DNA of 64,000 bases from assembly GCF_002854065.1 (NCBI RefSeq), contig NZ_CP024147.1, one strand, 5' to 3'. The notes beneath the pieces were generated by a model that did no database searches, was not told the DNA's origin, and worked only from the letters and a program-made list of their open reading frames with translations. The translations under genes were made by a program, and so were the position numbers. Shown here in pieces: positions 20,685 to 26,768 of this stretch; within the stretch, counting starts at the first letter, position 1; every line of letters starts with the position of its first letter. Source of the DNA: Escherichia coli (GTDB lineage Bacteria > Pseudomonadota > Gammaproteobacteria > Enterobacterales > Enterobacteriaceae).

Positions 20685-21578
20685 ATGAACATAGTGATCA
20701 CCGGAGGGACGGGATTAATTGGTCGCCATTTGATTCCACGTTTGCTGGAGCTGGGCCATCAAATCACGGTAATGACGCGTAACCCGCAGAAAGCCAGTTC
20801 CGTTCTCGGCCCTCGGGTGACACTATGGCAAGGGCTTGCCGATCAAAGCAACCTCAACGGCGTTGATGCGGTAATCAACCTGGCCGGAGAACCGATTGCT
20901 GATAAACGCTGGACTCACGAGCAAAAAGAGCGTCTCTGCCAAAGCCGCTGGAATATCACGCAAAAACTGGTCGATTTGATTAATGCCAGCGACACGCCAC
21001 CGTCGGTACTCATTTCCGGCTCGGCAACGGGCTATTATGGCGACTTAGGTGAAGTGGTGGTTACCGAAGAGGAACCGCCGCATAACGAATTTACCCATAA
21101 ACTCTGCGCCCGCTGGGAAGAAATTGCCTGCCGGGCGCAAAGTGACAAAACGCGAGTGTGCCTGCTGCGTACCGGCGTAGTGCTGGCACCGGATGGCGGT
21201 ATTCTCGGTAAAATGCTGCCGCCGTTTCGTCTTGGCCTGGGCGGGCCGATTGGTTCCGGTCGGCAGTATCTGGCCTGGATTCATATCGATGATATGGTCA
21301 ACGGCATTCTCTGGCTGCTGGATAACGAGCTGCGCGGGCCATTTAATATGGTTTCGCCCTACCCGGTACGCAATGAACAATTTGCCCATGCGCTCGGTCA
21401 TGCGCTGCATCGCCCGGCCATTTTGCGCGTCCCCGCGACCGCCATTCGACTGTTAATGGGCGAATCTTCAGTACTGGTATTAGGTGGACAACGCGCGCTG
21501 CCTAAACGGCTGGAAGAAGCGGGTTTTGCGTTTCGCTGGTACGATTTAGAAGAGGCGCTGGCGGATGTCGTTCGCTGA
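20685..21578 (+). CDS. yfcH: epimerase-family protein YfcH (NAD-binding Rossmann, SDR-like)
   Basis: 297-aa product with N-terminal GGTGLIG motif; recognised as YfcH. Confidence 0.88.
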
Positions 21579-21625
21579 TGTGGTTTACAGCAAACATCCG
21601 CCAGTTAACTCCCGGTGTTACAGGA

Positions 21626-22516
21626 TTAGTGGCTTTGCGCGATAAGATCGTCTGGTGAAAGTCGGGTCACCATCATAACTAACTCTCTGTCTAAACCTCT
21701 ATCCAGCATCTCCTGAGCAATACGCAGGGCTTCTTCGTGTTTGCCCTGCATTGCGCCTTCTTCACGTAATCTGTCAGCAATGGTCATCAGTTTCTCCTTT
21801 TCTTGTGGTGCGCGTTCTGTTATCTCACCAATAAATGCACGGAAACGCTGGGCATCTCCCGTTTGTAATACATAATTAAACAGGGCTTTTAGCTGTCTGT
21901 CATTAGTGTTCCCTGTAACTAGCAGCGAAACAATTTGGTCGACTAATCCCAACAGATCGCGCTGACGAATATGTTTCTGAATTAACTCCAACAGCGCCAT
22001 TTTGCGATGTTGCATAATCTCGTCATCCGGCACCACGGTAATATCCACCAACGGAAAAGCCGATGAATATATTTTACGGGCAATCGCAGGCTCGGCAAAT
22101 TCATCAAGCCAGCAGAGTGAATAAGGATAAGGACTTCTGCAACCATGATAAAACAGCATCGGGATCACCAATGGAAGCTCTTTATAGCCCGCATCAAGCT
22201 GGTTTTGCATTGCCGCAATGGAATAACGCATCATGCGAAAAGCCATTAATTCTTCCGGCTTACTTTGGTGCTCTATCACTACATAAATATAACCCACTCC
22301 CTCCTGCGTTTTCACAGACCACAAGAGGTCGGAATAATATTGCCGCAGGTCTTCATCAATAAAACTGTTTGGTTCCAGTTTAAGCGTCGTTAAATCACAC
22401 AGTTTGCGCAGCGGCGCGGGAAGATGAATATCAATAAAATCCCGCGCGGTGTCTGGATGGCGTAAAAAAGATTTAAATACCGCATCATGCGGCGTGGAAG
22501 TTGTCGATATTGTCAT
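21626..22516 (-). CDS. rpnB: recombination-promoting nuclease RpnB (YhgA-like, PD-(D/E)XK family)
   Basis: 296-aa product recognised as YfcI/RpnB. Confidence 0.85.
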
Positions 22517-22712
22517 GGCGTTCCGTCACCCCTCAAATTTAAGATGACGCGACAATAACCACGATTAACACCCAATGCAGCAGGCAGTTTTTATCTTTGG
22601 ACAGCGAATTCAGAAGTATTTTTAGCGGACTGCAAATTTTACATTTCAGCGGAAGCTGACTCGCAAATTCCCCTTGAAAATACTCCGGCAGCGTTAGCCA
22701 CCGGAGAGGCAA

Positions 22713-23486
22713 TTATTTCAGCGAACCTTTAAGGAACTGTTGCAGACGAGGGCTTTGCGGGTTGCCAAATAACTGCTCCGGCGCGCCTTCTTCCTCTATT
22801 TTCCCCTGATGGAGGAAAATGACGTGAGTAGAAACATGACGAGCAAAGCCCATTTCGTGAGTCACTACCACCATGGTTTTCCCCTCTTCTGCCAGTTGCT
22901 GCATAATGCGCAACACTTCGCCTACTAGTTCAGGATCGAGCGCCGAGGTAGGTTCATCAAACAGTAAAACTTCCGGTTCCATTGCCAGCGCCCGCGCTAT
23001 GGAAACACGCTGTTGCTGACCACCGGACAGGTGCACCGGGTATTTCCCCTGCGCACGTTCGTCTATCCCGACTTTTGCCAGATACTTCACCGCCCGCTCG
23101 CGCGCTTCCTGCTTGCTCAGGCCCAACACCTGAATCGGCGCTTCCATGACGTTTTCCAGCACCGTCATATGGCTCCAGAGATTGAAGTGCTGGAATACCA
23201 TCGTCAGGCGTGTGCGCAGTAAGCGCAGTTGATTTTTATCGGCGACTTTGAGTTGACCGTCTTTGTCGCGCACCAGATTGATCGTCTGGCCATTGACCAC
23301 GATCGACCCTTCACTCGGTTTTTCGAGGAAGTTAATGCAGCGCAGAAAGGTACTTTTCCCCGATCCCGACGATCCGATGATGCTTATTACATCTCCGGCA
23401 TTCGCTTGCAGTGAGACCCCTTTCAGCACTTCGTGTTCGCCGTAGCGTTTGTGCAAATCGATAACGTTTAATTTATTCTCGGACAT
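22713..23486 (-). CDS. hisP: histidine/lysine/arginine/ornithine ABC transporter ATP-binding protein
   Basis: 257-aa product with Walker A (GSSGSGKST) and ABC signature (LSGGQQQR); recognised as HisP. Confidence 0.95.
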
Positions 23487-23493
23487 CGTATTC

Positions 23494-24210
23494 TCAGTGC
23501 GTTGAAGACGGTTTCACATGCTGCAACCAGCGTTTTTCCGCTCTGCGAAAGAGGCTGATCAGGACATAAGAGATGATTAAATAGAGCACCGCGGCAATGC
23601 CGAAGGCGGTAAAAGGTTGATACGTGGCGGCGTTAATATCGCGGGCTATTTTCAGCAGATCCGGCACAGTGGCCGTAAACGCCAGCGCAGTAGAATGCAG
23701 CATCAGGATCACTTCGTTGCTGTATGCCGGTAACGCAATACGCAGCGCAGAAGGCAAAATAATGCAGCGATACATTTTAAAAGTCGAGAAGCCATAGGCT
23801 CTGGCGGCTTCAATTTCCCCATGCGGAACCGAACGGATTGCCCCAGCAAAAATCTCGGTAGTGTAAGCGCAGGTGTTAAGCGTCAGCGCCAGCACGGTAC
23901 AGTTCAGGCCACTGCGGAAAAAGGCGTTAAGAAACTCGGTCCCCTTAACAATCTCCAGCGTATACATACCGGAATAGAACACCAGCAACTGAACATACAG
24001 CGGCGTACCGCGAAAAATATAGGTAAATAACCAGATTGGAAACTGGATGTATTTATTACTGGAGACACGACCAATCGCCAGAAACAGCGCCAGAACTCCG
24101 CCTATCACTACCGACAAAATAAGCAGCCACAGAGTGATCGCCACGCCGGTAAAGCGATAACCGTCGGTCCACAGCAGCGGTTTCCAGTATTCATGTAAGA
24201 TTTCGATCAC
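23494..24210 (-). CDS. hisM: histidine ABC transporter permease HisM
   Basis: 238-aa membrane product recognised as HisM; overlaps hisQ by 4 bp. Confidence 0.93.
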
Positions 24211-24893
24211 AGGTCAGCCCTCTTCACACCCACGGAGTAGCGGCGCTCAAGGAACAGCAGCACACCATTGGAAACGGTGGTGAAAACCAGGTAAATCACG
24301 CCACAAACGATAGCGAAATAGAACGGTTCCCAGGTACTTTTGCCTGCCAGCTGCGTGGCTTTGACCACATCTTCCAGGCCGAGTAACGAAACCAGTGCGG
24401 TAGATTTGAGGATCACCTGCCAGTTGTTTCCAATGCCTGGCAGGGCGTAACGCATCATCGCCGGAAACATGATCCGCCGAAACACTTGCCCACGAGTAAA
24501 ACCAAACGCCGTCGCCGCCTCTATATGTCCTTTCGGCACTGCCATAAAAGCACCACGGAACGTTTCGGTAAAATAAGCACCGTAGATAAAACCGAGAGTA
24601 ATAATACCAGCGACCATCGGATCGATATCAATCTGCCCGACGCCCATCGCCTCCGTCACCGTGTTTAGTGCAATCTGCAAACCGTAGAAAATCAGCAGCA
24701 TCAACACTAAGTCCGGCACGCCACGAATCAGCGTGGTGTACCCTTCGAAAATCAGCCCCGAAAGCCGATTTTGCGAGAGCTTACCGCCAGCGCCAATTAA
24801 ACCGATGATTACAGCGAGCACTACAGAGCTGATAGCCAGCTCCAACGTGACGAGCGCCCCCTGTAAAATAACACCTGAAAACCCATACAACAT
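24207..24893 (-). CDS. hisQ: histidine ABC transporter permease HisQ
   Basis: 228-aa membrane product recognised as HisQ. Confidence 0.93.
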   Translation of the reverse strand: MLYGFSGVILQGALVTLELAISSVVLAVIIGLIGAGGKLSQNRLSGLIFEGYTTLIRGVPDLVLMLLIFYGLQIALNTVTEAMGVGQIDIDPMVAGIITLGFIYGAYFTETFRGAFMAVPKGHIEAATAFGFTRGQVFRRIMFPAMMRYALPGIGNNWQVILKSTALVSLLGLEDVVKATQLAGKSTWEPFYFAIVCGVIYLVFTTVSNGVLLFLERRYSVGVKRADL

Positions 24894-24982
24894 GCTGCCT
24901 GTCCTGTCGTGTGTGGTGAATTACCGCCTCTTGTCTCCCTCCGGTTACCCGAAGGGAGCTGGCTTTCTTTCACCGATGGCGA

Positions 24983-25765
24983 TTAACCGCCATAAACATC
25001 AAAATCGAAGTACTTTTTCGCTAATTTCTCGTAAGTACCGTCAGCGCGCATTTCTGCAAAGGCTTTGTTCAGTGCCTCGCGCAGTTCGTTATCTTCTTTA
25101 CGCAGGCCCATGCCGGTCCCTACGCCAAACAGTTTTTCATCTTTAACAGACGGGCCACCGAATTTGTAATCTTTACCGACAGGTTGTTTGAGGAAACCTT
25201 CGCTGGCAGCGACCTCATCCTGGAACGCGGCATCAATACGTCCGGCAGTCAGGTCAGAATAAATGTTGTCCTGCCCCTGATACGAGACGATTTCAATGCC
25301 TTTTGGTGCCCAATGTTCATTACCGAACGTCTCCTGGGTGGTGCCCTGCAATACGCCTACCCGTTTGCCTTTCAGCGACTCGACTGTCGGCTGAATGTCA
25401 GAATTTTTCGCCACCACCAAACGAGAATCGGCAGCGTACAGTTTGTCGGTGAAGGCTATTTCTTGCTGACGTTTTTCCGTAATGGAAAGCGATGACATGA
25501 TGGCGTCAATCTTCTTCGCTTTTAAGGACGGGATTAACGCATCCAGCGGATTTTCGACAAACGTACATTGCGTATTGATGCGTTTGCATAATTCCTTTGC
25601 CAGATCGATATCGAAGCCAACCAGTTCGCCTTGTGAATTTTTTGATTCAAATGGCGCATAGGTCGGGTCGGTACCGATGCGGATGTTTTGCGGAATCGCA
25701 GCAAATGCCGCAGTTGCGCTGGAGAAGGCCAGAACCAGAGAGAGCGATAGCACCAGTTTTTTCAT
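24983..25765 (-). CDS. hisJ: histidine-binding periplasmic protein HisJ
   Basis: 260-aa product with signal peptide; recognised as HisJ. Confidence 0.93.
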
Positions 25766-25985
25766 AATGTCCTCAACTGACAGTCTTTTTATAGGGAATA
25801 TTTACAGGTTTGTTACACTTATCGTGCCATAAAATTGACCATCAAGGCAAAATATCCCGCCCCGTTAGACGTATTATTTTTCATTAAAAATGCTTAAGTA
25901 TGCATTTCAATGCACCACGATAGTGCAACAAACCTGGCGTGCACCATGATGATCATTCCATCAGGTACAGCTTCCCAGCGACGTA

Positions 25986-26768
25986 TCAGTCACCGTAGAC
26001 ATTAAAGTCAAAATACTTTTTCGCCATCTTGTCGTAGGTGCCGTCCTGACGCAGCTCGCCAAGCGCCTTATTGAAGGCAGCCGTCAGTTCAGCATCATCT
26101 TTACGTAGCCCTACACCGGTGCCATCACCGAAGTATTTTTTGTCTTTCACTGATGAGCCAGCAAAGGCGAAGTCTTTACCAGCAGGTTGCTTGAGGAATC
26201 CTTCGCTGGCGGCGACTTCATCCTGTAATGCCGCATCCAGACGTCCTGCAGCCAGATCGGAATAGACCAAATCCTGGTTGGCATAGGCCACCACATCCAC
26301 ACCTTTGCTACGCCAGGTCTCGTTAGCGTAAGCTTCCTGGGTTGATCCCTGCAGCACACCAACATGTTTACCTTTCAGTGAATCCAGCGTTGGCTGAATC
26401 GGCGAACCTTTGGCGGCAATCAAACGAGAATCTGCGGCGTACAACTTGTCGGAGAAAGCAATCTCCTGCTGACGTTTATCGGTAATGGAGAGCGACGAAA
26501 TAATGGCGTCGATTTTTTTCGCTTTCAGTGAGGGGATCAGCGCGTCAAAGTCACTGGCAACCCAGGTACATTTCACCTGCATCCGTTTGCACATCTCGTT
26601 ACCGAGATCGATATCAAAGCCAACAAAATCACCTTTAGCATCTTTCGACGAGAACGGCGCATAGGTGGTATCGGTTCCGATACGTACCGTCTCCGGTAGC
26701 GCCGCATAGCTGGAAGCCGCTGCGGAGAGACCGACTAACAAAGACAGAGCGAGAATCGACTTCTTCAT
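25986..26768 (-). CDS. argT: lysine/arginine/ornithine-binding periplasmic protein ArgT
   Basis: 260-aa paralogue of HisJ; recognised as ArgT. Confidence 0.93.

Follow-up and report, generated by a model that had tools for sequence, protein, structure and literature searches.

The systems closest to the locus analysed here are the rpn genes of Escherichia coli, in which a small antitoxin (RpnS) is translated from an internal in-frame start within the gene for a longer, toxic nuclease form (RpnL). The earlier note on this DNA referred to a study to this effect, which corresponds to Zhong et al. 2023 (PNAS, PMC10400941), where SPA tagging revealed a small protein from each of the five rpn genes of K-12, RpnB-S included. 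Ribo-RET peaks occur in all rpn genes and the internal starts had already been noted by Meydan et al., while the second initiation that gives RpnS is reported, from dRNA-seq, to be served by a shorter transcript from an internal promoter (PMC10400941). For RpnA, the internal start was proved with the mutant K240R+E241D+M244L, and the small protein RpnA-S (5.4 kDa) was crystallised (PDB 7TH0) and forms a 2:2 complex with RpnA-L; direct binding of the L and S forms and inhibition in vitro were shown for RpnA, not RpnB (PMC10400941). For RpnB itself, over-expression of the K-12 protein in vivo caused a 98.7% loss of CFU together with SOS induction (PMC5350276). Mutation of the internal start and RBS of rpnB led to stronger growth inhibition than the wild-type gene, and RpnB-S supplied in trans blocked RpnB-dependent SOS induction, which RpnA-S did not; a stop codon at D29 of RpnB-S abolished the blocking effect (PMC10400941). 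Published cross-tests agree that each small protein fails on the other toxin, since RpnA-S does not neutralise RpnB and RpnB-S does not neutralise RpnA (PMC10400941).

Beyond the chromosomal genes, the RpnP2-L/S pair of ECOR13 belongs to the same family and has the same gene-within-gene arrangement as rpnB. Encoded on a plasmid, RpnP2 confers protection from T-even and BASEL phages, whereas no such phenotype is reported for chromosomal RpnB; in the published work, phage protection belongs to the plasmid-borne gene and not to the chromosomal ones (PMC10400941). McrB and McrB-S (mcrB-S is annotated in K-12), along with other E. coli isoforms from in-frame internal starts, offer a further parallel, in that a nuclease system's gene also yields a shorter in-frame C-terminal form; but McrB belongs to an unrelated family, and McrB-S modulates a restriction complex and is not a described antitoxin.

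The window, by which we mean the whole 64,000-nucleotide stretch of E. coli DNA analysed, carries a minus-strand open reading frame that spans exactly 21626..22516 in the ORF list and encodes a protein of 296 aa (34.2 kDa). This ORF is chromosomal E. coli rpnB (yfcI). It is flanked by hisP (22713..23486, minus) and yfcH (20685..21578, plus), and nucleotide matches to the 1.4-kb stretch around it are confined to E. coli chromosomes. In 4,747 of 5,426 complete E. coli genomes a full-length match is annotated in RefSeq as 'rpnB: recombination-promoting nuclease RpnB' at the same position between hisP and yfcH, and rpnB/b2305 of K-12 MG1655 occupies the equivalent site. The window protein is 99% identical to K-12 RpnB-L, the sole differences being Q106H, I118L and T233A; all three fall in the N-terminal part, none is at a catalytic position, and the architecture is unchanged between the two strain backgrounds. 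RpnB-S is identical to its K-12 counterpart in both amino-acid and DNA sequence, as are the internal Shine-Dalgarno sequence and ATG. The gene and its nested antitoxin are thus already known, having been published for a K-12 copy with an identical antitoxin sequence (PMC10400941), and we conclude with high confidence that this is the chromosomal rpnB gene, in which the antitoxin is nested within the toxin and RpnB-S is initiated at Met244.

Placement of the protein in the Rpn/YhgA-like nuclease family (PF04754, TIGR01784, COG5464), which the earlier note describes as of PD-(D/E)XK type, is borne out by profile searches. Pfam PF04754 ('Putative transposase, YhgA-like'; Transposase_31) covers residues 8-209, encoded at 21890..22495 on the minus strand (E 3.6e-90), and TIGR01784 scores RpnB at 185.9 bits against a cut-off of 52.1. 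Mutations in RpnA at D11, D63, E82, Q84, R94 and D165 of the PDDE motif altered activity or toxicity (Kingston et al. 2017, PMC5350276). A residue check against those mutants finds every one of these positions present in window RpnB, inside the PF04754 region, and in a protein alignment of 64 homologues (52-97% identity) most RpnA-required residues are invariant, with Q84 and D165 nearly so (at least 90%). Given the synteny, the identity to K-12 RpnB, the PF04754 and TIGR01784 matches and the presence of the activity residues, the gene call and family assignment of the earlier note are correct. A Pfam search at E up to 10 returned no match of RpnB to PF14261 (DUF4351), which describes stand-alone RpnS-like proteins.

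Structure prediction was of more limited use. An AlphaFold2 model of RpnB built from the 64-sequence alignment has a mean pLDDT of 64.7, is poor after residue 130 and has a low-confidence C-terminal half; the domain boundary is for that reason placed on sequence evidence. Foldseek against the PDB gave no match to the model at E <= 0.001, and for the nuclease core it lists restriction endonucleases such as PaqCI, MspJI and BamHI at non-significant values (E > 0.04). The only match used is a local one to 7th0, with a probability of 0.99 and a target TM of 0.75, and the PD-(D/E)XK fold of the N-terminal core is regarded as putative.

The top PDB matches of RpnB by sequence are designer pentatricopeptide-repeat proteins, with E down to 3e-10, reached through residues 255-285. 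They head the search because a helix-turn-helix stretch at 21653..21751 (residues 256-287) resembles the consensus pentatricopeptide repeat GKLDEALKLFEEMVEKGIKPDVV, which those proteins contain in repeated form. Homology was rejected, as ten weak matches (each with an individual E > 100) had been summed by setting one helix-turn-helix stretch against a repeated consensus, and the likeness is judged to be a convergent similarity of helical hairpins.

One alternative to a defence or toxin-antitoxin module is that RpnB is mainly a nuclease of recombination or horizontal transfer, or a domesticated transposase, and that the small protein merely regulates that activity. Over-expressed RpnB raises RecA-independent recombination 19-fold (PMC5350276), NCBIfam still labels the family 'putative transposase/ISNCY', no phage phenotype of RpnB is reported, and the gene is surrounded by core housekeeping genes with no defence island. 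Set against this, deletion of rpnA to rpnD left basal recombination unchanged (PMC5350276), the relative RpnP2 protects against T-even phages (PMC10400941), and the raised non-synonymous change and repeat-number polymorphism of the C-terminal module, described below, would suit an arms race more than a housekeeping function. The boundaries of the gene also speak against a transposase origin. When the window is aligned with strain AVS0282, whose site is empty, a 1,002-bp rpnB-specific segment (21605..22606, minus) is delimited; between hisP and yfcH this segment occurs whole or not at all, and that strain has about 27-28 unrelated bases in its place. A repeat search at the 21605 and 22606 boundaries found no terminal inverted repeats, target duplication or meaningful direct repeats. 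The gene is missing from about 673 of the 5,426 genomes, and this pattern of presence and absence is in line with the published account, by which rpn genes come and go singly but are not transposons (PMC10400941). Taken together, we consider this alternative unlikely.

For the toxin-antitoxin pair, the part assigned to phage defence requires moderation. The earlier note overstated the defence role of rpnB, as the protection on record is that of plasmid RpnP2 and PADLOC 2.0 contains no defence-system model that matches RpnB. An anti-phage role of the chromosomal protein may be supposed by analogy with its family and with RpnP2. That rpnB is the only gene in the window with a plausible role in defence is a reasonable reading of the annotation of a near-identical record, which consists of housekeeping, transport and fimbrial genes.

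To locate the internal start, each in-frame ATG, GTG and TTG of rpnB was scored for pairing of its -20..-4 region with the 3' end of 16S rRNA. Met244 shows the strongest anti-Shine-Dalgarno pairing among the 25 internal in-frame starts (-8.7 kcal/mol), where AAGGAG (21799..21794) is followed by a 6-nt spacer and the ATG (21787..21785), all on the minus strand. The surrounding sequence is predicted to lack structure (MFE -4.7 kcal/mol, with 190 of 200 shuffles folding at least as well), and the Shine-Dalgarno itself is predicted to be unpaired. AAGGAG overlaps codons K240-E241, and the arrangement is that of RpnA-L/RpnA-S, whose internal start lies at the same residue number, M244, with its Shine-Dalgarno in codons K240-E241; the three residues mutated in RpnA (K240, E241 and M244) are the positions of AAG-GAG and ATG in window rpnB. 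Counting from Met244 places Asp at residue 29, in agreement with the published D29 stop mutant of RpnB-S. Among the other in-frame starts, Asp29 results only from the annotated one and from a GTG at codon 80, with none further downstream of residue 80.

Comparison with the crystallised antitoxin leads to the same boundary. Residues 1-48 of the 49-aa RpnA-S in PDB 7TH0 align to RpnB 244-295, with Met244 opposite residue 1. The two small proteins have the same three-helix module and are 43% identical in a pairwise BLASTP comparison (E 1e-10). At 49 aa, RpnA-S is one four-amino-acid unit shorter than the window RpnB-S. Homologues carry the PF27070 HTH_Rpn_C domain. The true nested gene, rpnB-S, is 21626..21787 on the minus strand, starting at Met244 and encoding 53 aa (6.1 kDa). 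RefSeq has no rpnB-S CDS annotated in the records examined, and the window should carry it as a second CDS at these coordinates.

Conservation of the internal start was followed in 10 rpnB alleles, chosen at regular intervals along the E. coli collection ranked by similarity. Neither AAGGAG nor the ATG varies in any of the 10, and the only difference in the 30 nt that precede the internal ATG is a single synonymous change of A to G. At the protein level, M244, T245 and E241 are invariant in the 64 homologues and K240 is nearly so. The signal extends to the paralogues of K-12, where the homologous Met has the strongest Shine-Dalgarno of the internal in-frame starts in rpnA, rpnE and the rpnD pseudogene, and ties in rpnC with an adjacent ATG one codon upstream. 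Beyond K-12, Citrobacter freundii, C. koseri, Salmonella, Kluyvera and E. marmotae supply five genes in which AAGGAG, 6 nt and ATG also recur, the site ranking first or second.

An additional or alternative nested product could in principle begin at Met256 (ATG 21751..21749), giving 41 aa, and a moderate Shine-Dalgarno-like pairing does lie upstream of this codon (GAAGAAGG, -4.8 kcal/mol). Residue 256 is Met in just 6 of the 64 homologues, the codon coincides with the point of repeat insertion and does not survive in the +12-nt alleles, and a count from it puts Thr rather than Asp at residue 29, all of which make such a product very improbable. Least probable of all is the start proposed in the earlier note, the in-frame Met173 of MALLELIQ (ATG at 21998..22000, minus), whose product of about 124 aa (14.2 kDa) would contain the entire C-terminal module and whose Met is found in 46 of the 64 homologues, since the codon has no Shine-Dalgarno (+0.4 kcal/mol, or no pairing, in 10 of 10 alleles), is paired inside a predicted local hairpin of -17 kcal/mol, lies within PF04754 and mid-helix in the low-confidence model, is Val or Ile in 18 of the 64 homologues (RpnC, RpnD and RpnE among them), gives Thr at residue 29 where published RpnB-S has Asp, and would yield a product larger than the 5.4-kDa, 49-aa RpnA-S. 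The ATG near 22000 and the length assigned to its product are thus real, and it is as a site of initiation that the proposal fails. Nor does that Met belong to the C-terminal third, as had been stated, for it lies at 58% of the protein. The Shine-Dalgarno sought upstream of it is found instead 213 nt downstream, before Met244, 71 codons beyond the start first proposed. As a calibration case, the locus illustrates that the first plausible in-frame Met is no sufficient guide; how strong the Shine-Dalgarno is, how well the Met is conserved, where the domain ends and how the published mutants are numbered all point to the downstream start.

With the nested start at Met244, the pair would operate as follows. 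Initiation at the annotated ATG (22516) would produce RpnB-L, the 296-aa form whose nuclease domain is of putative PD-(D/E)XK type and which, when over-expressed, causes DNA damage and growth inhibition. Independent initiation in the same frame at Met244 would yield the 53-aa RpnB-S, by way of the shorter transcript from an internal promoter described in the literature. RpnB-S corresponds to the helical C-terminal module of RpnB-L, and by analogy with RpnA it may bind the identical module in RpnB-L through a long first helix that bears the four-amino-acid repeats, so that the nuclease is kept inactive. That the window RpnB-S is translated and neutralises its toxin is likewise carried over from the published K-12 experiments on an identical protein, and the mode of L-S binding in RpnB is modelled on RpnA. 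Since the same codons encode both proteins, toxin and antitoxin co-evolve, and how many four-amino-acid units there are, together with substitutions in the module, would decide which S neutralises which L. The full-length start has a Shine-Dalgarno-like GAGGGG at 22529..22534, with a pairing energy of -8.5 kcal/mol; its distance of 12 nt from the ATG is beyond the usual optimum, in contrast to the ideal 6 nt at the internal start, which would fit the published finding that RpnS usually exceeds RpnL.

The nested gene varies far more than the rest of rpnB. Pooled over the 10 alleles, codons 1-243 have a pS of 0.079 and a pN of 0.0052 (pN/pS 0.07), whereas codons 244-296 have a pS of 0.154 and a pN of 0.087 (pN/pS 0.57), a pN 17-fold above that of the upstream part; with a sample of 10 alleles and allele pairs that are not independent, this contrast in pN/pS is descriptive only. 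Length variation involves a repeat tract at 21740..21763 (minus), EEGA MQGK, made of two xxGx units, with the site of a 12-nt insertion between codons 255 and 256 (21752/21751). The resulting four-amino-acid indel lies 12 residues past Met244, where the longer form reads EEGRNDGLILGKR against EEGAMQGKH, and the window allele is the short, two-unit form, as in K-12. Allele types comprise a K-12-like type, an O157-like type (...EKGFDHEVILTL...) and the form with four extra residues, and mosaic combinations occur.

The same pattern holds at larger scale. DNA of rpnB-S is present in 4,753 of the 5,426 genomes, and 2,091 of these copies are at least 99% identical to that of the window; the +12-nt form, which encodes a 57-aa RpnB-S, is matched at 95% identity or more in 1,288 genomes. 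Among the 64 homologues the lengths of the small protein are 49, 53, 57, 61, 65, 69, 73, 77 and 81 aa, with seven sequences off this series, and the length differences are built from xxxG-type units such as LQEG. Four-residue repeats are reported to begin 8-20 residues after the initiating Met of Rpn small proteins (PMC10400941), and the C-terminal variation of window rpnB and its homologues reproduces that published description.

Individual strains add further variants. In strain 129130 (L007:244-1134), rpnB is interrupted by a stop at codon 66 (W66*) and carries a pseudogene annotation, yet the internal Shine-Dalgarno, ATG and 53-aa RpnB-S frame are all intact. With a broken toxin and an intact nested frame, this may be an 'antitoxin-only' allele. 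In strain AR_0013 (L012:2345-4771), rpnB has a divergent C-terminal end (...LTLTRLSPEELLNQKQ) and is followed by a gene for a trans-sulfuration enzyme and nhaC in place of yfcH, a gene order which implies that, in some strains, rearrangements or insertions also affect the DNA downstream of rpnB.

We tentatively raise a broader reading of this diversity, doubtful as it is at present. The natural classes of RpnB-S (53 versus 57 aa; K-12-like versus EKGFDHEVILTL) might be specificity types that are not interchangeable and that are maintained by diversifying selection and recombination, with broken-toxin alleles such as W66* persisting as antitoxin-only 'immunity' genes. If true, the published experiment on RpnC repeats would gain a counterpart in natural chromosomal alleles, and chromosomal rpnB would have a role at the population level.

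Consensus scans of rpnB and its four paralogues gave weak sites only and did not locate the internal rpnB promoter from sequence; weak -35 hexamers occur in rpnB at codons 140, 164 and 206, with no consistent recurrence across the paralogues. The sequence nearest to a sigma-70 consensus in this region is TTCACA, 16 nt and AATAAT (10/12), at 22311..22340 on the plus strand; it lies antisense within the 5' part of rpnB, faces the rpnB promoter and hisP, and may be due to chance. An Rfam search of 21300..22900 returned no match. At the other end, rpnB and yfcH are convergent, with 47 nt between their stop codons (the gap ends at 21625), and a repeat search found a perfect 11-nt inverted repeat at 21558..21604 that could form a hairpin across the last yfcH codons and the gap; it is a likely terminator shared by the two genes. 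The yfcH-rpnB pair is listed among convergent transcriptional overlaps, the 'excludon' candidates (PMC12288877), and antisense effects on the rpnB-S transcript from this convergence are conceivable.

Strain 100416 (L004) equals the window around rpnB and is not collinear with it elsewhere, as seen over 24000..26000. Between argT and hisJ that strain carries some 460 additional bases, annotated as a partial pseudogene for a substrate-binding protein, which are missing from the window; the window is K-12-like there. Beyond about 26 kb the annotation of strain 100416 is only indicative for the far part of the window because of indels between the two sequences. Adjoining fadL, an AT-rich ORF runs on the plus strand from about 62.8 kb to 64000 and exits the end of the window, with 296 residues visible (MLPSISINNTSAAYPES...). 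It is annotated as 'hypothetical protein' in a related record, has no PADLOC match and scores 18.9 bits, below threshold, with NCBIfam RsiV. Between yfcV and sixA, the window carries a complete IS1 element of 768 bp (55184..55951) with 23-nt imperfect terminal inverted repeats and a 9-bp target duplication, TTTTGTCTT, at 55175-55183 and 55952-55960. This insertion is missing from strain 100416, otherwise the closest record, and the ORF within it at 55199..55702 (minus) matches the IS1 transposase model with an E of 6e-42.
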